NCBI GenBank assembly: GCA_012295275.1 | Contig: CM022672.1 | Location: 12,462,001-12,526,000, forward strand | Origin: Chrysomallon squamiferum | Lineage: Eukaryota > Animalia > Mollusca | Direction: 5' to 3' | DNA length: 64,000 bases | Notes under the pieces: model-generated | The model's input: the letters and a program-made list of their open reading frames with translations, nothing else | Told to the model about the DNA's origin: nothing | The model's database searches: none | Program-made: the position numbers and the translations under genes | Shown here: piece after piece, positions 8,627 to 52,632 of the stretch | Layout: each line of letters starts with the position of its first letter | Position numbering within the stretch: the stretch's first letter is position 1

Positions 8627-10911
8627 ATGCCGGTAGAGTTGAAAATTCAGCTGATTGCTGGAGACATCACAAAACAAATAGTAAGTCGATCATCGGAACA
8701 CTAATACTAAACTGCTTCGTCCTTTTACATACTAATTTATATACCGTAATTATAACATCGGTTCTACAAACTTTTTAAGATAATAAATAGCCTAGCAAAG
8801 AAATAGTAAAGAACTGGACAGTACTTTGTTTTATTTCTTTTTGTGTGTTTGTGTCTGATTATACATGTTTGTGTGTATGTGTGTGTGTGTGTGTATTAAC
8901 TTTACAGATTTGGTGCTGAATATAATGATTATTTAAGCGTCATACTTTATTATTAGCACAGTTTGATCTATTTAATAATAATAAAATAATAAAATTCACC
9001 CAAAATCAACAAACAATATCAACAATAAAATAAAAATAAGTAGAGGATAAAACAATCACTTGAAAATATAACTACATTATTTAAGTCATTGTTCTTTACG
9101 AGTTTGATACATTCTGATGCATATTGCAGGCCGGCGCAATAGTAAACAGCACAAACAAGCAGTTAGATCTTTCCAAAGCTATAGCTGATGCTGGTGGGGT
9201 CAAGTTACAAGATGCAATAGTTCAGTATAAAAAGAAACACCCCGAAGACATGACAAGAAACATTGCAGTGACAGACGCTGGAGATCTTCCGTGCTCAAAA
9301 GTGTTACACATCTCTCTACCACGGTGGTCTGATGCAATGTCTGAAAATAATGAAACGGTCAGTATAATAACTTTAAAACATACTCAGACAAACAAAAGCA
9401 TACACACTTACAAATCTATAAATAAACAAGCACGGACGTATGTACATACATTATTCATTCATTCATTCAGGGTGAATATTAAAAAAAAAAAAGTAGAAGA
9501 AGAAAAAAAGAAAGAAAGCAGCATAATAATCTATGGAAACATCATAAAGGTAATAAAATTTCGTAATGCTGATTAATCCCTTACTTTAATGTTTTGACAT
9601 TCCTTAATTTTTAATGATGTCATATAGTCGAATATTATTATATATAATGCGTTGGTTTTTCTATTTGTTACAGACACTGAGCGAGTTTATTGAAATGTGT
9701 CTCATAGCTGCAAACAATCTAGGATTACAAAGCATTGCCTTTCCATTGCTAGGTGGCGGAGATCTTGGCTATCCATTAAAAGTTGTAGCTAGGGCATTCG
9801 TAGACACGTTGTGGATTTTCAAGACCATTCAGGAAGAATCATGCCTTCACTTAGTAAAAATACTAGTCGATATCTGCGACAAAGAATTCAGACAGGTATG
9901 CCGATAATAAAAAGTAAGGTTGTAAAACAAATACTGAAAGTGTACAAGATATCTGGTTAAAAAAAAAGAAAAGAAATTATATCATAATTTATTTTTAAGC
10001 ATCACCACAATTTATGTATATTATGCATCTACATGTACAAGATGCTATTCTCATAAACTTTTATAAGTAACTCATGCATTTATGGTCTTATCGTTTGATT
10101 TTACACGCAGAAAAGTACATAAAAACTACACAATAACTAAAACAATGGCAACATGAAGAAGGAGAAGAAACATTTCACTAATAATAAAAATATGTGTATT
10201 TAGGCATATATATGTATCAGACTATCAAAATATTGACACACACACATGTACTCACTTAAAAGTTCATATATTTTTATTTAAAATAAAAGCCTGTTTTATG
10301 TTTTATTTCAGCATTTTGCAATTGAGATGGCAAAACACGATAAGTCAGAAGTCTACACAAATGGTATTTATTTATTTATTTATTTATTATTTTTTGTTTT
10401 GTTTTTAGCTACTTCATGAGTGTAAGATTAAGCATCCTGTACGTGCTATATACATACATCTTTTTGTCTCAGCAATTTCAGATTTTGAGATTTGGTATGT
10501 AAATTATTTTGAGAGAGAAAGAGAGAGAGAGCATTACAAGCACTCAGAATGTATATAATATATGTATGTATGTATGTACATATTCTCACTTAAAATCTTG
10601 CACATTTGAGCTAAATACAAAATATTACAATATTTTAAAAATGAACATTATTAGTTTGTCCATGTTATTTACAATAATGTGTGTATATCTTTTCCTTTTT
10701 TTCTTAATGTATTATTATCTTATTTTTTTACTTTATTTTATTTTATTTACTGATTTATATATTTATTTATTTGATTGTTTATTTCTCTCCCTTTCTTCAG
10801 ATAACCAAATAGAAGCTGTTCTTGTTAGTGGAAATTTAGAAAGACAGTCAGTAAGTCAGATATGTTTTGATTTGGTGAATTAATTAGCCTACAATTATTA
10901 AAAAAAAAAAA

Positions 10912-10946
<35 letters not shown>

Positions 10947-13900
10947 AATAAAATATAAATGAATAAATAAATAGATAAATAAATAAGTAAATAAATTAAT
11001 AAATAAATAATTAAATAGAAAATATATAAATGAATAAATAACAATAATAACATTTATGAAAATTTAACAACACAGCAGCAGATTTTTTTAACGCTTATTA
11101 AGTTAAATATAATAAGTTTGTGTGTGTGTGTGTGTGTGCTTACTTACATACATACATACACGCATACATTTTTAGGTTCATGCATTGGTTATTCCATGTT
11201 CAGCTGAAATGGAGCCGACGTGCTCGGTGGCCAAAGCTGTACAAAAAGCAGCAGGCGACATCGTTAGTACTGAACTGAGAACGAACTTCCATCCACCATT
11301 AAAAAATTGGGATTTTGCTGTTACAACGGGTGGAAACCTGGAGGCCAGATACATTTACCACGTCAATATTCCACGGTACTCCGAAGACATATTGATGGAG
11401 GTAACACATTTTTATCCCATTGCAAAGTAAATCATAAACAAAACTAAAACTTCCAAGCCATAATTTTGAAGTCCTAAACTACTGCAAGTTGTAGATGCCC
11501 TTTTTGATAGGTTATATCACAGAATAAGTCTGTGTAACAACAGAACATGGCAAGAATTAATGTTAATAAAATAATTACTTAAATACAATTTATAATAACA
11601 GTGTAAGAAATAAAAATGTATAATATTAAAAGTCTCAGGCACACGCTTGAATTTGTAATTAATTAATTTTTTAATTTTATTTTATTTAGGATTTTATTCA
11701 GATGATAGACAGATGTATGACAGATGCTGTCATAATGAACTGCAAATCAATCGCTTTCACTTTGCCTGTTACTAAAGATTTGAAATATCCTTCAAAATTA
11801 ACTGCCAGCTGCTTTAAACGAGGGTACTGTACTTTCCAAAGATCCCACAACAGTTTAGACTTTTTTGAAATGAGAGTTGTGGTAAAGGAGAAAGATGTAG
11901 CGACTTATGAAGTAAGAATAACTATTTTACACGCGTTTCAATACATAATTTTATTTACACTGAATAAACATGATGTTTAAAACAAATTTAAAAAAATAGA
12001 AGTTATAAAATCAGTCCTCTTTCACATCACTAATGTCATTATTAACTGGAGACCGTTATAAAACGAATGAGAAAATATTACAACTTTTTAAAAATAATCA
12101 GACAAAAATTTCCATTATATTTATAGGCATTCCGACAAGCTGAGTTTGAAACTCATTCTATAGGTATGTCATTTAATATATATTTTACCAATGCCTTCCG
12201 TACCAGCAGTAGTGACGGTAATGTTAATAGTAGTAACAGTGTAGCAGAAGTAATATTAGTAGTACTGGTAACGATAATAATAGTAGTAGCAGTTGTACAG
12301 AAGAAGTAGAAATAGGAGTAGCGGGGGTAGTAACACAGTGGTACCTTGAATTACGAGTTTGACCGAGATCGAATGTCAGTTTGCTCGTATATCAGATAAA
12401 TTTTCCGAACTGAAATTAATTGAAATACCATTAATCCGTTCCAGCCCTCATAAAAAAAAAAAAAATATATATATATTTTTTTTTTTTGTAATGTGTTTTT
12501 AAATAAGAAAAATGTACTTATAAATGACAAATATTGTATAAAAACAAAATCAAAGAGAATATAAAGAAATACATTGGTTTTGTAAAGTGTATTTATGTTG
12601 GAGATCAGACAACTTATTGTAACGCCTTTGGTTGGAGTTACAGCCTTTATCGACTCCTTCAGCTTCAGTACGGTACATATCGTAGAAGTACTTCGCTGGT
12701 ACTGCCTAGCCAAGTCGACTACATGCACGTTTCACTCATGTTTTTCTATGAATTCAAGCTTTAATTCAATGGACATCATCCGCTTTTTCTTCTCAGCACT
12801 GTCCTCTGCACTCATTTCCTTAGGATCCATGGTCAGAAAAAATAAATTTGGCAAAATAATGCACAATACGCGAACACAACACAACAGAGATGCTTCCGCG
12901 GTGAGGTAACCAGGTGAAGTAAGTGAGTGAGACGTGGGATGCTGGCCGGATGTTATGTTGTTCGTTGCGCCAAGTAGCGGCGGCGTATCTGAAGATCTCT
13001 CGTAACTCGGATTCTGGCTCGCAGCTCGAAGCAAAATATTGCTCGGGTGACTGCTCGTAACTTGAAAAAACTCGTTAAGTTGGGGCACTCGTAAGTCGAG
13101 GTACCACTAGTAATAATCTAGAAATACTAGTAGTTGTAGTAGCAACAGCAATAATAGTGGAAATAGTGATAGCAGAAATATTACTTTAGAAGAAAGCGTG
13201 AAAGTAGTACCAGTAGTATAATTGTAGTTGTAATAGTAGTAGTAATAGTAGTAGTAGTAGTAGAAGTAGCAATAGTAATATCAGAATAGTAGAAGTAATA
13301 ATAGGAGAAGTATCAGTTTTTTTATAAATAGTAAAAGTATCAACAATAGTAGTAGCTGCGATGGTAATAACAGTGGAAGTAGTAGCAGTAGTACAGTAGG
13401 AATAGAAATTCAGTATAGTAACAGCAAAAGGTGATGGAGATAGTAATGGTATAATAAAAATAGAAGTAGCAGTAAATGTATGTTTACATATTTTTCACTG
13501 ACTATGAATCTTTCTTCTGAAATTAATGTTCATTCAGTATGATCCATTTGTACATATAGCCTAAAATAGGAACGTTTCTAGAATGGTACACATCGATTAT
13601 ACGGTAGCAAGATGAACTTTCATAATTTATGATAACATAATTTTGGTCTCTAGATTTCAGTAGAGTTCCCAAAACATGGTGTCCAATGACCAGGGAAGTA
13701 GACGTTCTTACTTGCACGCTGTCTTCAAACTGTGCTGAATACAAAGAAGTTGCTGAATTACTGAAAGCAACAGCTTCAGTAAACTACGAGATAAAGAAGG
13801 TTATAATTTTATAACAAATGCAATACAGATTTTACAGGTTGAAGATCCTCTATCCGAAATTGTTTTCAAGTAGCCGAAATGTCAAATTTCAAAGAGGCCA

Positions 13901-13950
13901 TATTTCCCAAAGTATTGGTCCAAAGAAAGTAAAAATTTCTATTTAAGAGT

Positions 13951-13981
<31 letters not shown>

Positions 13982-14429
13982 CAGTTATAAATAAATACAT
14001 TTTATTTTTAAATCGATGACTTATTGCCAACCGTATATTTCTCGTAGATTGAACGAATACAGAACCAAGCGCTTTATCTACAGTACGATGTAAAACGATG
14101 GCAGCTTCATCAGAGAAATAATTGTCAGCCTATGAGCAGTATTGAAAAGAGACTATGGCATGGAACAACTGAAAGTGCAGTGATGAGTATCAACTATCAC
14201 GGTTTCAACAGAAGTTATTGCGGAAGAAACGGTATTAAATCATTAAATATTGTTTAGTTTGAAGGTAAAATAAAAAAAAAAAAAAAAAAATTCATTACAA
14301 AAAAAAAAAAAAAATAAATAAAAGATAGTAGCAGTAATAATAGTAGTAATATTAATAATAATCAAAATTAAACTTGATAAATGAATGGAAGAAAATGAAA
14401 TGTTAATATTCAGGACGGAACAAAACAAA

Positions 14430-14475
<46 letters not shown>

Positions 14476-15010
14476 ACAGTTTATTGAAAGAAATACAAAA
14501 ATCTTTCTTTTTTTTATCTCACTGCGGCCTCTACCATACTAAAATAAAAAACCATGATGCCTGCCTAAGGAAAGGTGTATATTAAGAAAATCTCTCGCTA
14601 CTAATCTAAAAGGCGAAAGATATTGATCGATGCCATATAACGAGTAAGCCATTAGATCAAATATTACCTACCTCTTCACTTTTATCTTTGAGTTTTTATT
14701 TTATTTTATTTTTCTCTTTGCAGAATTAAGATTTGGAGAAGGCGTATACTTTTCACAACAATCAAAATTTGCTTTGGATTCCACCTATTCGGTCAGAGGA
14801 CCGACAGGACTCAAATACGTGTATCTTGCTAATGTTCTGGTAGGAAGATTCACTGTTGGCGACAAGTCAATGAAAGTACCTCCACCCATTGAACCCGACA
14901 AACCACACATCCGCTACGACTCTACAACGAACAGTGTCGATAATCCTAGTTTATTTGTGATATACAACGACATTCAAGCTTATCCGCAATATTTACTGAC
15001 TCTGAAGTAG
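8627..15010 (+). CDS. Macrodomain-containing mono-ADP-ribosyltransferase, PARP14/PARP15-like (Macro-Macro-ART, ~568 aa, 11 exons)
   Basis: Exons 8627-8680, 9130-9357, 9674-9895, 10312-10363, 10801-10850, 11176-11400, 11690-11911, 12127-12163, 13654-13799, 14048-14231, 14724-15010 sum to 1707 nt in frame. Macro motifs GDITK..AIVNS and SIAFP. ART motifs IERIQN, LWHGT, GFNRSYCGRN, GEGVYF, NPSLFVIY, QAYPQYL. The start codon is the least certain part. Confidence 0.9.
12205..13475. repeat. Degenerate (AGT/TAG)n low-complexity tract split by a Tigger-like insertion
   Basis: AGTAGT-rich sequence at 12205-12335 resumes at 13109-13475 on the other side of the element. Confidence 0.75.
12336..13109 (-). 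mobile_element. Non-autonomous pogo/Tigger-type DNA transposon (copy 1), in a PARP intron
   Basis: TIRs CAGTGGTACCTTGAATTACGAG ... CTCGTAAGTCGAGGTACCACT. Minus strand encodes a broken CENP-B-type HTH transposase N-terminus (MDPKEMSAEDSAEKKKRMMSIELKLEFIEKHE*...VVDLARQYQRSTSTICTVLK). Confidence 0.9.
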
Positions 15011-15900: not shown

Positions 15901-17091
15901 TCAAACTACTGTTTGAAAAACGCTGACTGCCATAGACACTGTAGATAGAAAACCCACAGTAAATGCCATCACCCTTGCAGGCTGAGGTACAGAAACCAAG
16001 TAGACAAAACTGTGAACAAGACGCGATCCAGCGAAGAAACGAAAATGCAGAAGAGCTGTCGATAAACTTGGGTCTGTGGCTACATAAAGCAGACCAATCA
16101 GTACAAATGGAATTACATTTTCAAGGTCATTTAAGTGACATCTGAAAGAAAAGCAAATAAAAAGTGATGAGGAATTTGTTTTTATTGTGCCCTAAATCGG
16201 GAAGAAATAAAGAAGATTAATACGAGTCATTACGGTCTCAAATTCATATAAATTTAAATTATGCGAACTGGAACGAATGTGAAGAAAAAGTTGATTGTTT
16301 TGTTTAAAATATCGTAGTGTATTAAAATCTTAAGATCAATAAACAAAACGTAATAAATTAAGCCAGTTGGATTATTTCGGCACGATATTTTATCTAAAAT
16401 ATCACACACAATCAAAATAGGCCAGGCCAGAAGACAAGGCCATATTAAAACTTCATTATTTAAAAGCAGACATATTATATACATAATACATTTTTATTGA
16501 ATATATTTTTAAATTACCATAATCTTCAACGAGACTTCGTCAATAATTATGCAAAGGAAAACCTATGGGGAAAAAGAAAAAGGAACAAAACAAAATCAAC
16601 ACACACACACACACATACACACACACACACATACACACACACATATATACACACACACATATTCATATAATATATTATTATTCACAATGTACCTTCGAAT
16701 TCTTTCCACCCCTGGGTCGTTGTACATAGGTTTTACGTTTTCACCAAAAAATCGGCAATCTTCTGGATTAATAAACTTCTGAAAATAATAAAATTGAATA
16801 TACATAACATAGGTGGATCTCTATCACAGGTATCGTCCAGTACGTCTTTAGATAATCTACATTAAAACTACGATATTATCTTGGATTGTCCGAAAGCGTT
16901 GAAGGGAGCCTATATTGGGCACATTACGGTAATTATAAACACTTGACTTTTGATAAATATACCTTTTTAATTACTCTGTACGCACCCGTAAGACCACTCA
17001 TTAACATCATTTTTAGAATAACAATAACTGTATAAAATGCAAACTTTGCGAAAACTGGATTTTCTAATGTGTAAGGATTTCCAGCAGCCAT
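15901..17091 (-). CDS. MGST1: Microsomal glutathione S-transferase 1 (MAPEG family), paralog a, 151 aa
   Basis: Exons 17091-16963, 16778-16693, 16141-15901 (TGA). Motifs FINPEDC, DPGVERIRRCHLNDLENVIPF, SRLVHS..Y, PQPAR. Confidence 0.95.

Positions 17092-17774: not shown

Positions 17775-17823
<49 letters not shown>
17775..17823. repeat. (CA)n microsatellite between the divergent MGST1a and CMTR2 genes
   Basis: Directly visible. Many other (CA)n, (TA)n, (AAT)n and poly-A/T tracts occur in the window, e.g. 8547-8600, 14430-14473, 37140-37200, 52553-52647. Confidence 0.95.
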
Positions 17824-17826
<3 letters not shown>

Positions 17827-18712
17827 AGAGAAACACGTAGGTAAACCTTTTCTCCTCATTATACAGTAGTTCAGATGCGCGCAAATTTTTCTGGAGGAAA
17901 GAACAAAATACTAAGAAAAGGGAAACGAAACCAGTTGGAACAAACGTTAGGTTCCAGGTAATGTTTGTTTGAATTTTTAAATGAAACTGGCCGTGGTAAA
18001 TATGACATTAATTTTGCCTTATGAAACAGCAGTTTATTAGTTATTTAATTTTGACTGAATTTTATTTCCTAGGTGTTCCTAATGAAATATTAGCGAAAAA
18101 CGTTTCTATTTTCAGTTTAGAACTTACCGTACTACCTGTAAATAAAGTCATTCTCACCGGTAATTTATTTGTTACAAGGGTCCATATATAGCTGTGTAAA
18201 TATTTTGATCAGGTATGAAAAAGCAATGATTTTTTTGAAGAAAAAGTATCGGCACATCTATTTAAGATTACCAATCACAAGAAACATCACTACTGACAAC
18301 CATTTAAAAAAAAAAAAACATCATTCTCTGGGAAGCTTTACAGCAGAGCTGCCTGATCCAGCCCTCAAAGACTGCAATATACACAGTAAAATTCCATGTC
18401 ATTTTAACCTTATTAAATCCTAGAAAAAAAAAAAAATATATATATAGTGTGATTTCCATAGAAAATATTTACATATAGTTTGAAGATCTGTGCATTTGGA
18501 TCATTTCTCCCACACTCAGGGGACCCTGCTACATTCTCAAGCACACATTCAAACTTTAGATCCCTGAAAAAAAAAAATCTTTGTAAATTTTTATGTATGT
18601 AACTTGGACATGAACACATTAAAATTTAAATTGCAGATGGCACAAATTCTAATCAAACACAAAGTCAATCATGAACATTTTTTGCACAGAAAACATGCTT
18701 ACTGTATCACAT

Positions 18713-21700
18713 ACCATGGTCTAAATAAACTTTGATAAATGTTAGTCTCATTCAGTTGATTTTACCAGATGCTGCTGTTTTGTCATTTAAAATTTATGTT
18801 TTTGAGATCATTTTAACACATTATCAATCCTGTTTATATCTTTATAGAGAAAGAAATGTTTGCCAATTGTAAAAGAAATCTGTTGATATGACATGTTAAA
18901 AGGGATTAGTTTGTTGTTTTTGTGTTTTTTTCTTTTCTTAATCACCTTTAATAAAAATTTTTTTTTAAAAAACATTCAATTTTAATTGCATAGCTCATCA
19001 TTTCGGAAATTTGAAAAAATGTATATGTGAAAGTATGTGATAATAAAAGAAAGTTAAACATTTAGATAATTGTTTTAATTTTCAGTTAATCGTTTTTTTT
19101 TTAGATTATCAATGGCTTCAAAACACAGACATTCACCGACAGATGAAGGATCTTTTCAAAAGTAATACTTCTGCTAAGTTAACAATATATACTTAAAATC
19201 ATAATGCATCTAAAATGCTAAACAACTTTTTCTTTTCTACTGTGCATCAGAATGAAGGAAATCCTTTGAAAGTTTTATAAATATTCAGTATGTTATATTT
19301 AATAATTTTAATGATTTTATTTAACAACCTCATTATTATTTCTCTAATTTGTAACTAAAAATGAGGTGACATTACTTTGTTAATAATAATTTTCTTATAT
19401 AATTAATATATTTTTCTTTGTAAAATAATACATAAAGTACCATGGTCTGAATAAACTTTGACAAATGTTCATCTCATTCAATTGATTTTACCAGATACTA
19501 GCTCTTTTGTCATTTAAAATTTGTTTTTGAGATCATTTTAACACATTATCAGTCCTATTTATATCTTTACAGAGAAAGAAATGTTTGGCAATTGTTAGAA
19601 AGAATTTGTTGATATGACATGCTAAAAGTGATTAGTTGCATTTTACAAATAATGAAGATCATGATACCTGTGATCCTTCAGGATACATTAGTAATCACTG
19701 AAACAACCAGCTCTAATAATGTTTTGAATATCTACTGATACTGATGTTTATTTCTTTATTTTTTCTTTTCTTAATCACCTTTAATAAAAAAAAATAAAAA
19801 AACCATTAAATTTTAATTGCATAACTCATCATTTCCAAAAATTGTTGAAAAATTTATATGTGAAAGTATGTGATAATAAAAGAAAGTTAAAAATATAGAT
19901 ACTGATTTTACATTTTAATTCATGTTTTTTTTTTTTTTGATCATCAAAGATTTCAAAACGCAGTTATTCACCAACAGATGAAGGATCTTTTCAAAAGTAA
20001 TACTTCTGCTAAGTTAACAATATATACTTAAAATCATAATTCATCTATAATGCTAAACAACTTTTTCTTTTTTACTTTGCATCAGAATGAAGGAAATCCT
20101 TTGAAAGTTTTATAAATATTCAGTATGTTATATTTAATAATTTTAATGATTTTATTTAACAACTTCATTATTATTTCTCTAATTTGTAACTAAAAATGAA
20201 GTGACATTACTTTGTTAATAATAATTTTCTTATATAATTAATATATTTTTCTTTGTAAAATAAAACATAATGTACCATGGTCTGAATAAACTTTGATAAA
20301 TGTTAGTCTCATTCAATTGATTTTACCAGATACTAGCTGTTTTGTCATTTAAAATTTGTTTTTGAGATCATTTTAACACATTATCAGTCCTATTTATATC
20401 TTTATAGATAAAGACATTTTTGGCAGTTGTTAAAAAGAATTTGTTGATATGACATGCTAACAGTTATTAGTTGCATTTTACAAATACTGAAGATCATGAT
20501 TCCTGTGATTCATCAGGATACATTAGTAATCACTGAAACAACCAGCTCTAACAATGTTTTGAATATCTACTGATACTGATGTTTATTTTTCTTTTTTCTT
20601 TTTTTAATCATCTTTAATAAAAAAAATATTAAAAAAACCCATTAAATTTTAATTGCATAACTCATGATTTTGGAAAATTGTTGAAAAATTGATATGTGAT
20701 AATAAAAAAAATTAAAAATACAGATAATAATTTTAATTTTTAATTCATGTTGTTCTGGTTTTTTTAGATCATCAACAGCTTCAAAACGCAGACATTCACC
20801 AACAGATGAAGGATCTTTTCAAAAGTAATACTTCTGCTAAGTTAACAATATATACTTAAAATCATAATGCATCTATAATGCTAAACAACATTTTCCTTTT
20901 AACACATTATCCGCCCTATTTATATCTTTATAGAGAAAGAAATGTTTGGCAATTGTTAGAAAGAATTTGTTGATATGACATGCTAAAAGTGATTAGTTGC
21001 ATTTTACAAATAATGAAGATCATGATACCTGTGATCCTTCAGGATACATTAGTAATCACTGAAACAACCAGCTTTAATAATGTTTTGAATATCTACTGAT
21101 ACTGATGTTTATTTCTTTATTTTTTCTTTTCTTAATCACCTTTAATAAAAAAAAATAAAAAAACCATTAAATTTTAATTGCATAACTCATCATTTCCAAA
21201 AATTGTTGAAAAATTTATATGTGAAAGTATGTGATAATAAAAGAAAGTTAAAAATATAGATACTGATTTTACATTTTAATTCATGTTTTTTTTTTTTTAG
21301 ATCATCAAAGATTTCAAAACGCAGTTATTCACCAACAGATGAAGGATCTTTTCAAAAGTAATACTTCTGCTAAGTTAACAATATATACTTAAAATCATAA
21401 TTCATCTATAATGCTAAACAACTTTTTCTTTTTTTTTTTGCATCAGAATGAAGGAAATCCTTTGAAAGTTTTATAAATATTCAGTATGTTATATTTAATA
21501 ATTTTAATGATTTTATTTAACAACTTCATTATTATTTCTCTAATTTGTAACTAAAAAATGAAGTGACATTGCTTTGTTAATAATAATTTTCTTATATAAT
21601 TAATATATTTTTTCTTTGTAAAATAAAACATAATGTACCATGGTCTGAATAAACTTTGATAAATGTTAGTCTCATTCAATTGATTTTACCAGATACTAGC

Positions 21701-23825
21701 TGTTTTGTCATTTAAAATTTGTTTTTGAGATCATTTTAACACATTATCAGTCCTATTTATATCTTTATAGAGAAAGACATTTTTGGCAGTTGTTAAAAAG
21801 AATTTGTTGATATGACATGCTAACAGTTATTAGTTGCATTTTACAAATACTGAAGATCATGATTCCTGTGATTCATCAGGATACATTAGTAATCACTGAA
21901 ACAACCAGCTCTAACAATGTTTTGAATATCTACTGATACTGATGTTTATTTTTCTTTTTTTTTTTTTATCATCTTTAATAAAAAAAATATTAAAAAAACC
22001 CATTAAATTTTAATTGCATAACTCATGATTTTGGAAAATTGTTGAAAAATTGATATGTGATAATAAAAAAAATTAAAAATACAGATAATAATTTTAATTT
22101 TTAATTCATGTTGTTCTGGTTTTTTTAGATCATCAACAGCTTCAAAACGCAGACATTCACCAACAGATGAAGGATCTTTTCAAAAGTAATACTTCTGCTA
22201 AGTTAACAATATATACTTAAAATCATAATGCATCTATAATGCTAAACAACATTTTCCTTTTAACACATTATCCGCCCTATTTATATCTTTACAGAGAAAG
22301 AAATGTTTGGCAATTGTTAGAAAGAATTTGTTGATATGACATGCTAAAAGTGATTAGTTGCATTTTACAAATAATGAAGATCATGATACCTGTGATCCTT
22401 CAGGATACATTAGTAATCACTGAAACAACCAGCTCTAATAATGTTTTGAATATCTACTGATACTGATGTTTATTTCTTTATTTTTTCTTTTCTTAATCAC
22501 CTTTAATAAAATAAAATAAAAAAAACCATTAAATTTTAATTGCATAACTCATCATTTCCAAAAATTGTTGAAAAATTTATATGTGAAAGTATGTGATAAT
22601 AAAAGAAAGTTAAAAATATAGATACTGATTTTACATTTTAATTCATGTTTTTTTTTTTTTAGATCATCAAAGATTTCAAAACGCAGTTATTCACCAACAG
22701 ATGAAGGATCTTTTCAAAAGTAATACTTCTGCTAAGTTAACAATATATACTTAAAATCATAATTCATCTATAATGCTAAACAACTTTTTCTTTTTTACTT
22801 TGCATCAGAATGAAGGAAATCCTTTGAAAGTTTTATAAATATTCAGTATGTTATATTTAATAATTTTAATGATTTTATTTAACAACTTCATTATTATTTC
22901 TCTAATTTGTAACTAAAAATGAAGTGACATTACTTTGTTAATAATAATTTTCTTATATAATTAATATATTTTTCTTTGTAAAATAAAACATAATGTACCA
23001 TGGTCTGAATAAACTTTGATAAATGTTAGTCTCATTCAATTGATTTTACCAGATACTAGCTGTTTTGTCATTTAAAATTTGTTTTTGAGATCATTTTAAC
23101 ACATTATCAGTCCTATTTATATCTTTATAGAGAAAGACATTTTTGGCAGTTGTTAAAAAGAATTTGTTGATATGACATGCTAACAGTTATTAGTTGCATT
23201 TTACAAATACTGAAGATCATGATTCCTGTGATTCATCAGGATACATTAGTAATCACTGAAACAACCAGCTCTAACAATGTTTTGAATATCTACTGATACT
23301 GATGTTTATTTTTCTTTTTTCTTTTTTTAATCATCTTTAATAAAAAAAATATTAAAAAAAACCATTAAATTTTAATTGCATAACTCATCATTTTGGAAAA
23401 TTGTTGAAAAATGTATATGTGATAATAAAAAAAGTTAAAAATACAGATAATAATTTTAATTTTTAATTCATGTTGTTCTGTTTTTTTTTTAGATTATCAA
23501 CAGCTTCAAAACGCAGACATTCACCAACAGATGAAGGATCTTTTCAAAAGTAATACTTCTGCTAAGTTAACAATATATACTTAAAATCATAATGCATCTA
23601 TAATGCTAAACAACATTTTCTTTTTAACACATTATCCGTCCTATTTATATCTTTATAGAGAAAGACATATTTGGCAATTGTTAAAAAGAATTTGTTGAAT
23701 TTTAATGATTTTATTTAACAACTTGATTATTATTTTTCTAATTTGTAACTAAAAACTTAGTTATGTTAAAAATAATTTTGTTTTGTAATTAATAATTTTT
23801 TTCTTTGTAAAATAATACATAAAAT
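18713..23825 (+). repeat. Higher-order tandem repeat (~830 bp and ~533 bp monomers; ~1361 bp dimer) carrying 7 copies of a 57-nt CMTR2 exon
   Basis: The block TTCACCRACAGATGAAGGATCTTTTCAAAAGTAATACTTCTGCTAAG recurs with exon starts at 19105, 19940, 20768, 21301, 22129, 22663, 23493 (spacings 835, 828, 533, 828, 534, 830). Confidence 0.97.
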
Positions 23826-26800
23826 ACTTGGAGAGTTTGACTTTATTCCTTCAGAGCAAAGAAAAGATTTGTTCCAATTCATTTTGATGAAGAACGTGAA
23901 GATCTTGATGACAGGTCCATAGAAAAAGTTCACAAGATATTTGAAAAGAAATTTAAATACAAATCAGAAGAAAACACCACGTGGAAATTACCACAGATTT
24001 CAGTAGTGGAACCTTGGCAGGTTGAAGAACTGGCAAACGTGAAAACAGAACTGAACAATCTGAAAGACCTGCTGAATAATAAGGAACTGGGTTCTTGGCA
24101 CGAACATACGAACCGCACCAATATTGCTGGGAAAGTTATTTCAGAACTGCGCAATAAATATCACGTAGAGATGTGTACACAGGCTTGGAGCAAATGCTAT
24201 GAAATATTGTCTTCCTATAAACCTGTCGATGTCAACAGTCCTGAGATTAATTCTATTCATCTCTGTGAGGCACCAGGAGCTTTTATTGCAGCCCTGAATC
24301 ACTTTCTTGTAAACCATGGTAAAAATTTTCCTATAGTGAATAAAAAATAGGTGAATGTATGTTTAAGTATAAAATTTGATTGTTTTGAAATTGTGTGATA
24401 CTTACAATAAATTTAGTTTGATGCAAAAAGTTAAAGTAAATAGGTCTAAGACATTAACAAGTTCTATCAGTAATGTAAATTCATATGTTAATATATCTAG
24501 GCTAATTATTTAAATATTTTTATTATTAATACTTACACTTTAATACTTAATTGATAAAAATATAATATTCTAAACTAGTTTTTGGTATAAATATACATGT
24601 TACATTTTGTTAATTTAATTAATACAAAAATAAAATATAATAAAATTGTCAGAAAAGCTTTTTGTTTACACCAGTTACCATTATGAAAGTATCTTTTACT
24701 GTTGTCTTTGATTTTCATGCTGTTGGTCAGTTATAGATTTTTGATTTGTTACTTACTGCTGTTTACCATGGAATATTTTCGTCACATTTAGATTTTTCTG
24801 GCCACTGGGAATGGTTGGCAACAACGCTGAATCCTTACTATGAAGGTAACAGTCTTGGACAGATGATTGATGATGACAGATTTATTCGATCTACCATGGA
24901 CAACTGGTCCTTCGGTCCTGATAACACAGGAGATCTCATGAAACTAGAGAATTTCCAAAGCTTGCTGAAAGAAGCCAAATGCATCGGAAATATTGATTTG
25001 GTTTGTATTAAAAAACATTTTAAACACTTTATGATTAATTTTTATACAAATTGTTCAAATGTAATTCTGGTGGCTAATAATCATGGACTGAAAATGTCCT
25101 TATTGTTCATAATAAAAATTATTCTTTCTGACATGAGAAGACATTTGACAGCTTTATGAAGTTTTGATTTCAGATACATACTAAATACTATTAGCAAATG
25201 TATTGAAAGACCTGATGAAAATCATCAGCTAAACTTGAACATTTTTTTCTTAATGAAAAATCTGAGCAGATACTTATCTATGATTACCTGACATAATATA
25301 TGAAAATTGAAAATATTAAAAACAATTGATTATATTTCACTTCAAAAACCCAGATAATTTTTATAATTACAGGTAACTGCAGATGGCAGCATTGATTGCC
25401 AGTTCAATCCATCTGAACAGGAAAGTGTTGTTTCACGTCTTCACTGGTTTGAAGTGTTAACCTGTCTGTGGATGCTAGGTCCAGGTGGATCATTTGTCAT
25501 CAAACTGTTCACCATGTATGAGGCACCATCCATTTGCATGTTGTATCTTCTGAATTGTTGTTTCAGAGAGGTTTGTTGTATTTCTACAGCAGCCATATTT
25601 TTATATTGTGTAGTGTACAATATACCACATTCTGCTAAATTAAACTATGTGAAGTCTTTTCATTTATTGCGAGTCACTTGTCAGTGAAGCTTTGTTGCTT
25701 ATTAAAATAATTCTTATTTCTGTTACATGTAGGAATGGCTATTATTGCAACTACGAAAGAAAAAAGTTTCCACCAATCAGAATTTGATAAAAACAAAACC
25801 AAAAAAAAAAATCCATGCAGATGGAAGATATAATTAGTTAGATGTAAAAAACATACAAATTCATTGTGCATTAATTCAGGCCTATATACAAGGTTGATGT
25901 ATTGTTGGTTGATGGATATTTCTATTAATATACCTTTATCTTTTTTAACATTTAGAATCATCCTTTCAGGTAAATGTCTACAAACCAGCAACAAGCAAAT
26001 CTGGAAATTCAGAAGTTTATGTTGTTTGTCTGGATCACAAATCCTTGGATTGTACATTCCTCGATAACTTGAAGAATACCTTGTTCAGTAAGTTGGATAT
26101 ACTCAAAAATTAATCATATTATTTTTTTTATTTATTACTGTGAGGTTTTTATCTTGTTTTTTTTTTTTCTGGACAAACATGTTTTCATATTTGAAGAATT
26201 ATTATATTTATATTTATATGACTTTTTCCAAAAATGGTATACTGGATCACTAATGCATCTAGGATATTTTGTCTACAAAGTAAATTGGTAAATAAATGAC
26301 AGATTTCAAATTTTGAAAAATGTATTTAAACTATTAGTAATTACAATAAATACTGATGTATATTCTTTTGGTTTTTGCTTCAAAATCATGTTCAGTTATT
26401 TCTACAGGACTTTTTATATTGAGGAATACATCAGTAAGTAAATTAAGTGTGTAAGAATCATGCAGTTTCTGTTTCATTGCTGACCACACTGCATGTTATA
26501 TTTGTGTACAAGTTTAGAAATCTAAATATTTACTGGTTCCACATGATGCAGTGCTCTTGTTAATGTTGTATCCTTGCAATCTAAACTGTGTTTATTTTAT
26601 TGGTAGCTATAATAATGTTTCCTGAATAGTAACGGATTAATGGAACATCAGCTGCATTTTTTTTTAAAGTCAATTTGTCATGCAAAAAAACAAAAAGGTA
26701 CAAATTCTGTTTGAGAAATCCTTATCCAAAAACTGTTTATCAAACATCTGAGTAATATCTTAGAAATATTCTTAGAAATATTATGTATAAAACTACCAAC

Positions 26801-29800
26801 AAACTATCTGCTGATTTTGTGTTTATACTCAGGCCATTTCTGGTGTTCCAAAATTCCAAAACTCTTTTGAATAATACATATTGACTTTGTATTTTTATAT
26901 AATAGATTTTTGATTTTCTAATTCATTTTAGGTCATTATAAAAATGTGTTTTCTTATTTATGGTATATATTTTTCGTTGTCATCTAATTACAGGTAAAGA
27001 AGGTGACAAAATGTGTCTGTTCAGAAAAGAAGACATTCCAGAAGACTTTCTTGAGCAGCATATCAAGTGTTGTAAGCTTTTCTGTGAGTACCAATCTGAT
27101 ACAATCAACACCAACATTGAATTGTTCAATACCATGACAGAAGATGATCGTCTCCGTTTTGAAGCTATGAGAAGTTATTGTACTGACGAGTATGTCAGAA
27201 AGTATGGAATTGACTACATTCCAACTCGTTCTAAAGTTGTACAGAATTCCTGCACGGTAACTTATTTTACTGTAATTTTATAAGTGTATTTATTTGTGTG
27301 TGTGTTGGTATTTTCAACAACTATTTTATAATTTGTACCTTTTGAGACAGGAAGATATTGAGGTTTGGACTGGATATTTTTTTTTTTATCTGCAGCATTT
27401 TGTTTGAAACAAAAAAGGAAAGAATCATAATTCTTGTTTGATAACATTCAGCCCATGTACAAATAAAATGAAGACTGAATCCAAATTTTCATTTTTGTTT
27501 AGAGCATTGCACTTACTTAATTTACAAATAGTGTAAGAAAATATTTTCTTTCTTTTTGAAACTTAATCCTATTTTTGTTGTCATACGTTTTTGTAAACAT
27601 TTTTGATTTTTCTATAACTGATTTCTTTATTTTTCATAATTCTTTATGTCTTTAGTCAAAAAGGAGATTTTATTTTGAGAAAAACAAGGACAATTTAGAT
27701 GGACATAGAAGGCGAGTTGTACAGGAATGGCGATATTGGAAGTACACTGGATCATTTGAAGACAGACAGCAACAGAAAGCATTACCATGGAACCAGCAGC
27801 TTCAGCAAATGAAAAAATATGATTATGGATTTGAAAGCACCATCAATCTCACGGTGTGAATAAAATTGTTTAAAAAAACAATTTTCATATAAAATGTATA
27901 AATTATTTTCTTTATTCAGCTTAATTGTCTAAATTTATGTCTCAGTCAAATGCTGTTTTATTTTCTGGAACTATTGATCTAGCCATAATGGAAAAAGAAC
28001 TGAAAAAATCAATAGATTTAAGATGTCTGGCAACTATATTAAAAATATATTTAATAAGTTGCTCAGGCAGCCATTTGCTAAAGTACATTAAGGTGGTCAT
28101 TGCTGCAGTCATGGACATCTCACAGGAGTTAAGATTTGAAGTTGTATTTGCTGATTTAGCCAGTCAAAACCTGGTATTTTTCTCAAGTCATGGTAGAATA
28201 AATAACGTGTGTTCAGAGATTGTTTTTGTATATCTCTTGGAATAGTCATTTTGGCAATAAAACACATTTGTCAACAAGCCTTTAAAGTTATTTGCATAAC
28301 CTAATCTTAGAGTTTAAATGTTGTTTGAAATGTCTGCTTTTTTGAGACTCGGGTTTGATGGCTTTGAAATATACACCAACAGATTTGTTTAAATTAATTC
28401 ATAACTTGAATAATGACAATCAAAGGCAAGTTTAAGAACTTTTTAATTTTAAAATAGCTAATCTGTTATTAAAGTAATTGGTTATTATTTTGTAAATGTT
28501 TTTGGACAGCCTTCTTTATTTTCATTTCTGAATATCACAACCATTTTCAATGATTATTGATGTTTGCTCAGTCCCTTTTCACATTTTCATCTGAACTAGA
28601 TTTTATTTATTTTGTAATTTATTCTTAGTTCTTTTGTTGTTGTTTTTTTAGTGTTCGGATTCATTGAGCTATGATGAAATAACTAACTGGAGGCGTTCTA
28701 CAGGGCAAAAGTTAAAACAGATACAGAGCTCCAGGTTCTGTGAAGGAAAGCTTATTGAGCATATGAAAGAAATGTTGTCGAACTGCCAGGTTAGACATAT
28801 GCTAACAAGTTAATGTTTTAGATATATTTCAGCTGAAAAATAAAAATGTTATTCAGGTCTTTCCAAGTTCAGTATAGCTTTAGTAGGTTTAAAGCTAAAA
28901 ATTTAATCTGGGTTGTTACATAAAAGATGAACTAGTAAATTACACTACTTTGATGCAATGACCATGTTGGTCTTTATGAATCTACACTGAAGTATTAAAA
29001 TTCATTTGTATATGTTACTTTGTTTTCTTCCATATTTATTTCTTTTTGACATTTGATTTGGTTTACAGATTAAGGATCACAAGACTGCAAGTACAAACAG
29101 AAATGAGAAAAATTTATTGACGGAATTAACAGGTTGTCTTCGTTCAGCTCGTAGATCTGTTGACACTCTGTATTTCTGTGACATTGATAAAAAAATTGAA
29201 GACCACTTGAAACACAAATACGACATGTTTGGTAAAGGAAACTTTGTGACATTATCCAGTGTCAGTTTACTCGACAAGATTTCCCAGACAGAAGTTGCCT
29301 GTGTGGTTTGTGATCCTCTGAAACAGTCAGAGTTCGTTCCAGATGAAGAAGAAGTTCTAACCCAGCAGCAACTTTTTGAACTAGTTTTGCAGTTGGTGAC
29401 GGTAGGTCACAGTATTTATCCTTCTCTCTGAACCCTGTAAGCTATTTCTTACAAGAAATAACAATGTTATTTGTCAAAATTTCATTTCAGTATTAAATCA
29501 TTGTTGTTTTTTTGCTTTTGAAAGATATCAGTGAAAAAGAATGTTCTTAAATTATTCATCTTTTGACAAAAAATTATCCCGTTTCTTGCTCATATTTATT
29601 GAATTAAAAGTAATTCAAGAATTTTTAATTTGCATTATTTTAGCAAGATTATACTGAATCATGCTTATTTATGGGTTGTTTAATATCCTTGTGACATATT
29701 TATCATGTTTCTGAAAAATGTTAATGACTTTTCTGTGCTGGAATTTTATTCATCAAAATGTTTTGTTACAGCATCTTCCTGAACACAGCAATGTTATAAT

Positions 29801-31741
29801 AATTATTGGCAGTGCATTCACTCGATTCACAGCGGGACTGCTGTACATTCTGGCATCCAGTTTCAAACTGGTAAATAGAATTAATACACAAGTCTCACAT
29901 TTGAACTTAATTTATCAAAATAAATGTTGATATCCTTCTGGAGTGAAGTATCTTTATTATATTATGCCAGCTTTAAAAAAAAAAAAAAAAAAAAAAATTC
30001 CTTATATACAAGAGAAAAAACAACAAAAAAAACCACATTTATGCAGTCATGTTAGTTTATTATCTTATTATAAGTTGTTTTTAGATTTGGAAATGTACAA
30101 AATGTATTAATCTTATTTCATTGTGCCAACAAAAGCACATTTCAATATCTTGCTGTTATTACAATATTGTTGTGGATTCACATAATACAGTAAATGTTTA
30201 AATTTTTATTTTATTAGACTGCTGTTTCTCCAAAGCCTGGAGGTCTCTCATTTAGACAAATTCTCACACTGACAGACTTCACCGGAAAGTTTCCAAAACT
30301 GATAGAGTACCTTGAGAAAATTAAAACTAAAACTGATAAAATGCAAAGTGACATGGCTGTTTTAGAAATTGTTCCTACATCTGTCCTTATTGGTGGTATG
30401 TTTTTGACTGAGTTTTAGTAAAACTATTATTATTTCTATATATAAACTGTTTGAATTAATAAATCTTCGTTTACCCTACTAGAACACATTATTATTATTA
30501 AATGCTATTGAATTTTATTGTTATAAGCAGGATCTGAAATGCATTCATTTTATTACTGATCAGCAGAAAGGGCTTCTTTATAAGCACCAAGGAAAATGAA
30601 TTTCAATAAACTAATTACTGGATGTAAAAATGAGAAAATAAGCCTAGTTAGGATCAAGGTCAGATTTCCCACATAGGCTAGAGCCAAGGGGTGGCAGTTT
30701 ATCAAAATTGTTACTGGCCAGTGTTGCCAACTGTGTGCCTTTTATGCTCATTTGGACGCTTTTTTAGGAGATTATTTGCTAAATTATCGAGTTATGCACT
30801 TTGTTAAAATTTGGGCTCTTTTGACCTAATTCAGTTAAATTATTATGACTAAGAATAAATACCAATTGGACAGAAACTTTGTAAAAATATTTTTTGAGGT
30901 GTGCACTTTTTCAGTAAGAATTTGTGCAATTTTCCATAAGTTATAAAAAATCATATATTTCATATTATATAGTAAACAAAGTGGGAAGGGTGAAGTGGGC
31001 TTCAAGAGGGGGTGGTAAAATTTCTATAGCCTATGGGCGACTAGCACAATAAATCCATTACTGCATAGGATCGATTCTGTGAATTTCATTGCCTCAGGAT
31101 TTCCACCTAACCATAAAGCTAGACTTTCTTAGGACATAATATATTTATATTATTGACATTATCTTTTTTTTTTTTTTACCAAGTATTATTAATAAACCTT
31201 AACAACAAATAAATGTTTAGAAAGTTATGTTTATTCATTTATTCAAACCTGGCTGAATTATTAAAACAAGTGGTAAAACCATTGTGTCCATCCCATGGAC
31301 TAGAAAAGAGACAGGAGGGTTTTTGATAAATATGTTATGGCACAATAATCTTACAGTGGACCAACTAAGTACATCTGAATCCGTGACCAGTAATGGATCA
31401 GAACTAATGACATATTTGTAACGTAAACCACGTAAATTTAAAATTTGTTAAATACATTTGAATACATGCAATAAATGTTTTGGTTTTTAATTTTTATTCT
31501 CTATTTTCTGATTGTTTTTACTTAATTTTGTTTATTTATTTAGCAATATTTGTGCAATTTTGAATAGAGAGTCAGTAGTGAATGTAAGCAATAAGAGATA
31601 ACACTGTAAACAATGTATTTTAATTCTCTTTCAGATTACAACTTCACTGATTGGCTGATGTCTGTTAATCGCAGTCTCACTGTGAGTTTCATCAATGCTG
31701 CTATTGACTGTGAAAAGAGATATCTGCCAGGTCCAGAATGA
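19112..31741 (+). CDS. CMTR2: Cap-specific mRNA (nucleoside-2'-O)-methyltransferase 2 (FTSJD1), ~784 aa without the optional repeat exons
   Basis: Exons 19112-19161, 23855-24318, 24792-25000, 25373-25570, 25970-26087, 26994-27256, 27656-27853, 28652-28789, 29069-29401, 29772-29870, 30218-30395, 31635-31741 (TGA) total 2355 nt in frame. Motifs [58 protein letters not shown] give the K-D-K-E tetrad. Confidence 0.94.
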
Positions 31742-32238
31742 AGCTAACACTGTGAAAATGTGAAAAACAATGAATCATATTTAGATGTTGTTAACGTAAA
31801 ATCATTCCATTTACGTTCAATCATTTTTACTCTGCTGTACATTTATTTTGTTCAGATTCTGTCTAAAGTCATAGCTTTTTTAATTCTAGCACTGGTAATA
31901 GCTTTATAATTTCTGTTACATTGGAGGTTTTTTTATATATACAATTTTTGTTTGCTGTTGCTTTAGCAAATGTAGATATTCAAATAATGTGCCATACTTA
32001 ATTGTTTTTTTTATTTTCTTGGGTGTTTAACCCATAGTCTTTCTAAAGTGTACTGTGTAAATTGTACATTGTCTTCTTATTTTATCTTGTGAACCAGATT
32101 TTATATAGTCATTTTTAAGCATAATTATGTAGAAATATATTTTGTTACTTCTTTTGCTGAATGAATATATTGATAAGTCTCTGTACGTGTGTAAATTCAA
32201 ACTCACGTTGCACACACATGCATACATATACACATACA

Positions 32239-34719: not shown

Positions 34720-36140
34720 ATGGCTGGTCAGTTGAGTTTCGACAATCCTGTTTTTTCCAAGTTTGCACTTTATTCAACAGTTGTGTTGGGCAAAACAATG
34801 ATGATGAGCCAGTTAGTTACTATCAACAGAATTCGAAAAGAGGTCAGTAGCATTTTCAGTAAAGATAATCACAACTCTTAGTACAAAGTCATGTTCAAAA
34901 AATACTTAACCTTGCTTTCACTTCCATGTGTTTGTATATATGATATACATTTTTTTGTATTAAAATTAAGGTTTGTAAACATTTATATATGGGGGTGTAT
35001 GATAGAGCATGCGTTATCGTCTTGAGAGGCTGTTTTCTAATCTGGTCTATGTTTGACAGCTGTTACATGTGGTATTTGATTTCTTCTCATTATTTAAAAC
35101 TGTATAGGCTATGCATGACACATAGCAACCACTAACGTTAAAACATACTAAAGTATCACATAAAATGCAGCCTGATTATTGTCCGCATGCAAACTTACGT
35201 TTAATGTCCTTTCTATAGACTATAGCTCCACATTGATATATCGTTTTTATTTATTATTATTACTCGAAAAATGCTTACATGGTACCTGTAGACCTATTAC
35301 AGCTTAAATTAATAGTGTTAAAATAACTAACAAGCTGAAAAAAAAAAATCTGATTTTATATAGCATCACTTATCATGGCTGTGCTTTAAGCATTAGGTAT
35401 TTGAAAATGATCGACTGAATTAATGATTAACACAAAAGCTAAATGAACAATTACCAATAAATACTCTTCTATTTTATCATTTACGAATATTGCAGCAAGG
35501 TTGTCATTACATTTTTATTACAGGCATTTGCCAACGAAGAAGATGTCAGAACTTTTGGAAAAACGAAAGGATTGGCAGTAATAAATGATCCTACAGTTGA
35601 ACGAATTAGAAGGTAAAATGTATTTAATAACAACAATAATAATAATAATTAAGAAAGAAAAAAGAGGATTCATCAGTTATTTCTTTAAGAGTAATATTTA
35701 GTTTATTTATATCATTGTAAAAGAATAATACGAACCGTATTTTTGTTGTATAAAAACTGAATTATGTACCTTTGATTATGTCTTTACCGACACTTATTAA
35801 CATACACATGCAATTAATATTTATTTGTTGTAAAATCTTTTTTATGTTTTTTTTTTTTTCCCCCTTTTTTTCCAGGTGTCATTTGAATGATTTGGAAAAT
35901 GTTTTCCCATTTGTCCTTGTTGGATTATTCTATGTCTCCACTGGTCCAGATTTATCTTTAGCAGAGTGGCACTTTAAAGTATTCGTCGGAGCAAGAATAT
36001 GTCATACACTATCCTATCTCCTGGCTTTACCCCAGCCCTGCAGATTTTTATGTCATACAACTTGCTGGCTGGTCACAGCATCTATGGCTGTTGCTGTTTT
36101 CGCGAATGTTCTAGATTTCAAACTTCCTTTTGTGCAGTAA
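34720..36140 (+). CDS. MGST1: Microsomal glutathione S-transferase 1, paralog b, 158 aa
   Basis: Exons 34720-34842, 35524-35612, 35876-36140 (TAA), with the same intron positions and phases as paralog a. Motifs FANEEDV, DPTVERIRRCHLNDLENVFPF, ARICHT..Y, PQPCR. Confidence 0.95.
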
Positions 36141-38839: not shown

Positions 38840-40397
38840 AAAACTGAAAAAAAGATAACATAAATGTCTTTAATCATTATTAAATGATAATTTAAAAACT
38901 ACCATGGTTTTCCCATGACATTTCTAGTCCATTTTGCAATCCACATGTTGCAGTGTCTCATTGATTTGTGTTGAATATTCAGTTTGCATGTTACATTTAT
39001 TATAAAATATTGGTAATAAATATTCTGAAATATGATGATGAAAAATCATAAACAGGTCTGATAGATGCAAGAAACATGTTATACATTTACAAGTACCAAT
39101 AGATTCTGACCTTTTAACATATAAAAATATGTTTTTTTCAAATTAATTAAAGTGGAAAAATAGAAGAACAGAAAAACATCACCATGCAATAACAACAAAC
39201 CAAAAAACCAAAAACCGAACACTGCTAACAAATTACCAATAAGTTTCAAACATTGGTGTGAATATTCCTTTAAAGTGCTTGTTTATTACCAATGCATGGC
39301 ATAAAAATGTACAAGTATTAGTTTTATGGTTAATTGATTGAATTGTTAACAGCACATCTGGCAAAAAATAAAAAAAAAAAAAAAAGCAACACAGCACAAC
39401 AAAAAATAAAAAAAATAAAAAGTAAAACATTTTACTTCACATTCAAAAAATGTTATAACTGTTGCAATTATATTTTCAGTCAAGGCAACACCCAAGATCA
39501 CTGTAGAAGTAATAATAGTTGCAATTATCACTATAGAAGCAATTCTTGTGATAACCATTGTGATTCTATGTTGGTGTCTGAATAGGAAGAAAACGGTATC
39601 ATCAGGGACAGTTTCTGCAGTGACAAGTACAACAAAAGACCAGAAGACAGGATCTTACTGTGCACCCCCTCAGACAACAAACAATATACCGCCTCCACCA
39701 CCCCCCCAGACTCCAAAAAATATACCGCCTCCACCACCTCCACCACCTCCACCATCATCAGTACCAGTACAACTCAAAAAAGTTTCAGCAGATGACAGTA
39801 AGCCAACTGGGCAAGGAGGTATTTATAATATAGATATAACAATATTTCCATGATTCATGAACTCTTTAAAATAATTTCATGAAGTAAAAGCAAAATTATC
39901 ATTCTTTTATTTATTTATAAATGAAAGCTTTGGTAATGTTCCCTGTTTTGCTTATTATATCAGTTTCTTTAAAATAAACTATTATACCGTTAATTATTTC
40001 AAAGTCAAAAATGAAAAAAAAATGAAAAAAAACCCAGAGAAAATCTATTTGTTTATGTTAAGGTTCTCCCCAAAAATAGGAAAAAAACCAGCACTAGCAG
40101 CAGGTTCCATATTCCTCACTGAAAGTACAAGAAAGTATATGTTGTTTAAAATGTATACATTCATTCATTGCAAATAACTTATAGTCACAGATTTCTTGTT
40201 CACAATAAATATTAGTAAAATAATACTTTTATTATTTTATTTTTTCAGCTCCACCATCCTTTTTTTTCCTTCCTCCAGTACCTAGTAATAGATTTCCTCG
40301 TAATAAAGTGAAGACACAAACTAATTTTCGTCCAAGCACACCGCCGATAAGATTTGAAACTCCAACACTTCGACCACCTCCACCACAACTTTACTGA
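38214..40397 (+). CDS. Uncharacterised single-pass membrane protein with proline-rich cytoplasmic tail (~171 aa, 3 exons)
   Basis: Exons 38214-38241, 39480-39818, 40249-40397 join in frame through two phase-1 GT-AG introns: MSDKEDFDDLKATPKITVEVIIVAIITIEAILVITIVILCWCLNRKK...NIPPPPPPQTPKNIPPPPPPPPPP...RPPPPQLY*. Reverse CCAAT (ATTGG, ~38056) and TATATAA (~38095) lie upstream. Confidence 0.7.

Positions 40398-52557: not shown

Positions 52558-52632
<75 letters not shown>

Follow-up and report, generated by a model that had tools for sequence, protein, structure and literature searches.

What becomes of a protein when the exon that holds its start codon is multiplied in tandem inside the gene? 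The question is raised by the gene for CMTR2, the cap2 2'-O-methyltransferase, of the mollusc Chrysomallon squamiferum, which lies in a 64,000-nt stretch of DNA (assembly GCA_012295275.1, contig CM022672.1, forward-strand positions 12,462,001 to 12,526,000). This whole stretch is referred to here as the window, and its positions are numbered from its first letter. In this gene the start-codon exon stands in seven tandem units. The reading that we favour, and hold to be probable, is that several and perhaps most of the encoded modules are spliced in series, so that a tolerated, predicted-disordered tail precedes an intact enzyme. Here we describe the array, the RNA evidence for its splicing, the enzyme to which it is attached and the systems that it resembles.

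Layout of the exon array

Seven exon copies, each of 57 nt and followed by GTAATACTTCTG, are present in the array, with coordinates and length as given in a preliminary description of this DNA made from the letters alone. The other exon features given there are also borne out, including the acceptors (poly-T/AG in six of the seven copies and TG in the copy at 19940), the donors, the phase, the absence of stops and the module peptides. All seven copies have phase 2 at both ends and can be joined in frame to the exon at 23855, as that description held; with a length divisible by three, the frame survives however many copies are joined. The openness of the copies is in itself unremarkable, as the exon stays open in 53% of cases after nine random substitutions. 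The start ATG is confined to copy 0. A 22-nt exon core occurs at exactly seven sites on the + strand of the window, namely the seven copies, and the last 29-31 nt are identical across all copies of the A and B types distinguished below.

In self-BLAST, the duplicated unit comprises the exon together with intron, and the units follow each other in the order 0, B, A, B, A, B, A'. A B unit measures ~828 bp and an A unit ~533 bp. A 1361-bp B+A dimer is present three times at 98.6% identity, above the ~85-91% found between unit types (A versus B or 0). Many sites are private to one of the three dimers, including position 19938, where a single A-to-T difference from the two other B copies produces the TG acceptor of copy 1. 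The array was missed by Tandem Repeats Finder because the longest period of that program is 500. The features of the array are as follows.

18711-23827, + strand: whole tandem array of exon-plus-intron units (approximate limits, self-BLAST)
19105-19161, + strand: copy 0, ancestral-type exon and the one with the start ATG, at 19112 (sequence)
19533-20893, + strand: higher-order dimer 1, a B unit and an A unit, 1361 bp (self-BLAST, alignment of units)
19940-19996, + strand: copy 1, B-type, with TG acceptor (private mutation or assembly error; if real, the copy would be skipped)
20768-20824, + strand: copy 2, A-type exon
20894-22254, + strand: higher-order dimer 2
21301-21357, + strand: copy 3, B-type exon (in RNA contigs the B type is seen spliced behind a module, the individual B copy being indistinguishable)
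22129-22185, + strand: copy 4, A-type exon
22255-23698, + strand: higher-order dimer 3 and, at the 3' edge, the beginning of another unit
22663-22719, + strand: copy 5, B-type exon
23493-23549, + strand: copy 6, A-type exon, with the position 3 base as in copy 0

A plausible history begins with one duplication that would have given a copy without the ATG, which would then have split into the A and B types; the B+A pair would afterwards have been amplified as a block, likely by recent unequal crossing-over. Separately, the 5' part of unit 6 (23361-23495) shares several bases with unit 0 or with the B units that the other A units lack, as expected at the crossover edge of an array.

Splicing of the copies in RNA

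The RNA data consist of assembled contigs from eleven runs, nine of them with part of the region, in three studies. Two runs were read over 23200-27300, which covers copy 6 and five exons of the gene body: X7 (RNA, study P1) and X9 (study P3). X9 is labelled 'DNA?', yet it is spliced at all four body joints, and the same four GT..AG joints are present in X7. In X7 a module end is additionally connected to 23855 by a GT..AG joint, and this module end may belong to any A or B copy because their terminal letters are shared.

In both X7 and X9, a contig runs to 23549, reads ATCATCAAAGAT and resumes at 23505. ATCATCAAAGAT is the 12-letter start of the B copies and has just three occurrences in the window (19940, 21301 and 22663), and neither strand of the window contains the joined form of module end plus ATCATCAAAGAT. 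A junction that stands in spliced contigs and is missing from the genomic letters marks the copies as real exons. In two studies, then, splicing sets a B-type copy immediately after another module, which places several copies in one mRNA; the number per mRNA is a matter of interpretation. This junction is one of the two that the preliminary description had named in proposing that the copies are used as exons. Splicing of all transcripts directly from 19161 to 23855, which it had set beforehand as the outcome speaking against the proposal, does not fit the X7 contigs.

A cluster of mutually exclusive exons was considered as an explanation for the array, and is ruled against by the module-to-module junction.

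Could the junction instead come from a side product, such as circular RNA, truncated transcripts or a processed copy, with the mRNA using copy 0 alone and the dimers being partly an over-expansion in assembly? Circles do give go-back joints, the base that separates copy 0 from the A and B copies stands 5-6 letters away from the end of the contig, where it is unreported, and the dimers are highly alike. If copy 0 were joined solely to the body, however, the X7 contig would continue into the upstream exon, whereas the 2586-nt mRNA contig of X7 ends after 29 module letters. The private differences among the three dimers are unlike those of a duplicated contig, and five runs of DNA or unclear type from three studies hold 0.78-0.82 of the words sampled over 17800-27300, although one of these runs may be the source. 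We consider a side product very improbable.

Number of modules per mRNA

Graphs of 31-mers were built for 13 isoform sets, without and with 10% pruning of low-level branches. In the unpruned graphs, a 29-letter break is given by six of the 13 sets; each of the six has at least two duplicated modules in tandem, and none includes a direct isoform. An unbroken contig is produced by copy 0 on its own or with one fixed copy, while a one-of-many choice breaks at 31 letters and sets with a direct isoform, including an even ladder, break at 23. The X7 break fits at least two duplicated modules in tandem, and not direct-only, mutually exclusive or even-ladder splicing. For copy 0 with one other copy, the choice that a mutually exclusive cluster would make, the simulated break is 31 and the depth ratio 0.4, against 29 (X7) and 3.6-4.5 in the data.

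The depth ratio is that of the junction contig to the body contig, and amounts to 117.7 versus 26.3 (4.5x) in X7 and 163.1 versus 44.8 (3.6x) in X9. The simulated ratio is 3.0 for seven modules, 2.0 for six modules (without copy 1) and 1.5 when modules are included independently at p=0.5, while an even ladder gives 1.0. The observed ratio has the same direction in both studies and hints weakly at joint inclusion of most copies, and possibly at a working copy 1 or at longer arrays in the sampled animals.

Several points weigh against joint inclusion of most copies. The 29-letter break comes from X7 alone; in X9, no contig is listed that covers 23855-24016. Pruning at 10% also yields 29 when modules are included independently at p=0.5, 0.8 and 0.95, so partial skipping is compatible with the break. 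No A-type junction is present among the listed contigs of X7 and X9, though short A contigs could be dropped. Contig depth cannot rank the parts of a gene, mRNA coverage is uneven, and the observed ratio exceeds even the seven-copy value of 3.0, so either the hint is loose or the sampled animals carry more copies than the window.

A shorter tail is another candidate reading, in which only the B copies follow one another efficiently and the A copies, with their short introns, are for the most part left out, for example as 0-B-B-B. The only module-to-module junction among the listed contigs is of B type, the X7 bin depth over copy 6 equals the sum of the B contig and the body contig (44.2 computed, 44.2 seen), and simulated 0-B-B-B gives a break of 29 and a depth ratio of 3.0. 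Because copy 6 depth is fully explained by these two contigs, either A-type contigs were dropped or A copies are skipped. On the other side, the simulated A-type unitigs are only 53-61 nt long and form a bubble with the B path, which makes them droppable in assembly, and the A acceptors look as good as the B acceptors. We regard this shorter tail as quite unlikely.

The preliminary description had proposed a tunable ladder, in which regulated or stochastic skipping gives isoforms with 0-5 (or 6) modules that adjust CMTR2 localisation or phosphorylation. Symmetric exons permit any in-frame subset, exons as short as 57 nt are often skipped in general, rare variants are dropped from contigs, and after 10% pruning a break at 29 letters also results when modules are included independently at p=0.5-0.95. 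Alternative use of protein repeats is also described as widespread in the available part of a survey (10.1101/2023.04.29.538821). An even 0-5 ladder, however, simulates a break of 23 and a depth ratio of 1.0 where 29 and 3.6-4.5 are seen, and both this ladder and a 50/50 mix stay at 23 with pruning. The direct form from copy 0 to the body is not evident in X7, and the copies, with identical donors and near-identical acceptors, are too young and alike to hold separate regulatory signals. Silent changes account for one of the nine variable exon sites, near the chance mean of 2.2 (P=0.31), which also gives the ladder no help. Several copies included jointly match both the break and the hint from depth more closely than an even ladder does, and a tuned ladder appears to us an unlikely account. 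No second isoform differing in repeat number is seen in the contigs, which hide minor forms.

Serial splicing of several copies, our preferred reading, would need no regulated choice. Every copy would have inherited working splice sites, and because these comprise identical donors and strong acceptors (13-15 pyrimidines of 17 in the six AG copies, compared with 9-13 in six constitutive body exons), default inclusion of most copies would be expected. The main mRNA would then carry several, probably most, of the 19-amino-acid modules.

Identity and structure of the CMTR2 gene

With the 23855 exon as query, CMTR2 proteins are found throughout the matches listed (120 of 130 matches, 654 candidates), and those that carry a name are CMTR2. 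The joined open reading frame (ORF) encodes ~781-784 amino acids with one module, and aligns to Haliotis rufescens CMTR2 with 38.8% identity over residues 19-784, reaching the protein end. This alignment takes in the second, non-catalytic C-terminal Rossmann domain, for which the last exons are predicted. Against primate CMTR2 the identity is 43% over 422 aligned positions, and the active-site and cap-binding residues are kept. Among the identical residues are K117, D235, K275 and the Glu of NSEVY, which we take to be the K-D-K-E catalytic tetrad. Residues matching K74, L77, W85, T89, H142, E145 and K307 are identical as well, as named in the accessible part of PMC3941023. Single exons match Pfam FtsJ only below its cut-off. 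Judged by these alignments, the gene is an intact CMTR2 (FtsJ/RrmJ fold, PF01728), closest to that of abalone.

The coding sequence spans at least 12 exons, in contrast to mouse CMTR2, for which the available part of 10.64898/2026.07.28.741271 reports the entire coding sequence in one exon. The exons outside the array are as follows.

17875-17957, + strand: candidate upstream exon, with GT donor at 17958 (sequence only)
23855-24318, + strand: first constant coding exon of the CMTR2 body (GT..AG joint to module end, run X7)
24792-25000, 25373-25570, 25970-26087 and 26994-27256, + strand: four catalytic-domain exons (all four joints in both runs)
27656-31800, + strand: six further exons (the 27656 start is a loose end in both runs; the others are predicted from AG/GT, frame and homology)

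The ATG at 17875 in the candidate upstream exon shares the array's frame (phase 2) and would extend the protein by 28 basic residues; it may lie upstream of the transcription start, and if it is transcribed, copy 0 would not be needed for initiation. A G-to-C difference at 24947, within a CMTR2 exon, is present in an mRNA contig of X9 and is probably an allele.

Composition of the tail

Inclusion of all copies would place a Ser/Lys-rich, predicted-disordered tail of up to ~131 amino acids before the cap2 methyltransferase. The seven-module tail of 131 residues contains 35 Ser, 27 Lys+Arg and 14 Asp+Glu, and its hydropathy of 0.324 lies on the disordered side of the charge-hydropathy boundary of 0.449. 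S-P-T-D is present in all seven modules and R-x-x-S-P in six of them, while S-Y-S-P-T occurs in three B copies. The last of these presumably corresponds to five residues, in order, of the heptad junction in RNA polymerase II's C-terminal domain (CTD).

The preliminary description had assigned to each module an S-P site and a basic patch resembling a nuclear localisation signal (NLS). The S-P site is present in seven of seven modules. The likeness to an NLS is weak: K-[KR]-x-[KR], the classical monopartite NLS consensus, has no match in residues 1-140 of the seven-module protein, and the basic patch that aligns to the N-terminal KRKR of relatives sits in the constant exon 23855, outside the modules.

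No sign of purifying selection on the modules was found, in a test of little power. Between unit types, 4-8 of 57 positions differ in the exon, 17-38 of ~175 in the upstream intron and 2-4 in the downstream 76 nt, and the share of silent changes in the exon (one of nine variable sites) is what chance would give.

The motifs invite the proposal that the tail is a functional, dose-variable phospho-module, whose repeat number, set by splicing or copy-number alleles, would tune the recruitment of the enzyme to nuclear, CTD-binding capping machinery. If true, a CTD-like tail would have arisen de novo on a capping enzyme that is normally nucleo-cytoplasmic. This proposal seems to us improbable. The default expectation is that the tail is a tolerated, near-neutral extension; it may modestly alter localisation or phosphorylation, and is probably tolerated rather than tuned. 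Mammalian CMTR2 is described as lacking an NLS and as fully nuclear once one is added, in the accessible part of 10.64898/2026.07.28.741271, so a basic, phosphorylatable tail could shift the site of cap2 synthesis.

A second reading frame (+1) is also open through all seven modules (19105-23549), and an out-of-frame ATG is present in each module. On a seven-module mRNA, the first of these ATGs begins a 142-amino-acid ORF that ends in the 23855 exon and that leaky scanning could use.

Comparison with relatives

The N-termini of 297 relative proteins were compared, 292 of them anchored at a conserved Trp. This Trp has a median position of 87 in the relatives; here it lies at 98 with one module and at 212 with seven. 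It lies at position 190 or beyond in eight of the 292, through non-repetitive extensions or insertions. Full-length homology is shared with CMTR2 elsewhere, but an N-terminal array of exon-encoded 19-amino-acid repeats is found only here, in none of the 292 anchored relatives, including the nearest, which is 61% identical over one exon. Clear short repeats are present in two of the 292 (P0282 and P0191), in the loop after the first helix, downstream of F-x-K-K/I-F, and are unrelated; one further relative (P0206) has a low-complexity N-terminal repeat.

Its place before the folded domain, in a region of widely varying length among CMTR2 proteins, would allow the tail to be tolerated. Tolerance at the N-terminus is likely, given this variation and the viability of mice with an N-terminal 3xFLAG-HA tag on CMTR2, as reported in the available text of 10.64898/2026.07.28.741271. 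A literature search returned no report of a repeated N-terminal exon in any CMTR2, most subscription journals lying outside the search, and the accessible part of PMC13343190 contains nothing on the CMTR2 N-terminus. As far as this search reaches, the array is new for CMTR2.

Known systems of exon repeats

Homologous tandem exons are also found in the Dscam1, tropomyosin and MHC clusters, where the choice is mutually exclusive; here the splicing is serial. Tau repeats are an example of alternatively spliced protein repeats. A set of such repeats (ASPRING) is described in the available part of 10.1101/2023.04.29.538821 as exon-bordered and about one third disordered. The present array shares with this set the exon-bordered repeats whose number could vary by splicing, and differs in being very young, whereas the ASPRING repeats are conserved across species with demonstrated alternative use (10.1101/2023.04.29.538821).

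The nearest architecture, by analogy, appears to be the exon-intron higher-order repeat of NBPF/Olduvai, in which monomers of exon(s) plus intron were recently amplified as higher-order triplets to give tandem protein repeats (PMC9584774, accessible part). Both systems have an exon-plus-intron monomer, a higher-order block (a triplet there, a dimer here) and tandem protein repeats (PMC9584774). In NBPF the monomers are ~1.6 kb with two exons and belong to a multigene family, according to the same part of that source, while here a 57-nt exon lies in 0.5-0.8 kb units of a housekeeping enzyme. The window has the features of such a repeat in its frame-symmetric exon-plus-intron tandem monomers and in dimers that are more alike than the unit types. 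The likeness is architectural, and no sequence relation is claimed.

About 10% of animal genes are reported to contain duplicated exons (PMC9013439, available part). The process, expansion of repeats bordered by exons, is known, and the array is a new and young example of it, met at an early stage and backed by RNA, in an essential housekeeping enzyme. It offers a clean natural setting in which to ask if freshly made symmetric exon copies enter the mRNA by default, and how repeats in proteins begin.

Neighbouring genes and other observations

A head-to-head promoter likely occupies 17841-17957. On the - strand, at ~17860-17848 and within ~30 bp of the candidate first CMTR2 exon, lies a candidate exon that has an ATG and a GT donor and probably belongs to the MAPEG gene at 15.9-16.2 kb. 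Between the two candidate exons lies a TTTGCGCGC element, which we take to resemble an E2F site. CMTR2 has a MAPEG (MGST1-like) gene on either side, at 15904-16191 (- strand) and 35754-36137 (+ strand); the two are oppositely oriented and are possibly an old inverted duplication. The other genes identified by Pfam in the window are as follows.

1607-1909, + strand: COX15
9118-15007, + strand: macro-domain PARP (PARP14/15-like)
48883-54428, - strand: mitoguardin
58157-58399, + strand: INTS5

Three related degenerate stretches are present at 12351-13106, 48001-48303 and 53331-54022; the three ORFs tested from them have no Pfam match, and we presume the stretches to be remnants of Tigger/pogo-type transposases. 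An ORF at 39419-39853 (+ strand), also with no Pfam match, encodes poly-Pro followed by V-Q-L-K-K-V, presumably like a WH2 actin-binding motif. In a mitoguardin intron, a 55-bp unit is repeated 2.2 times at 52215-52333 with 100% identity, representing either a very recent duplication or an assembly slip.

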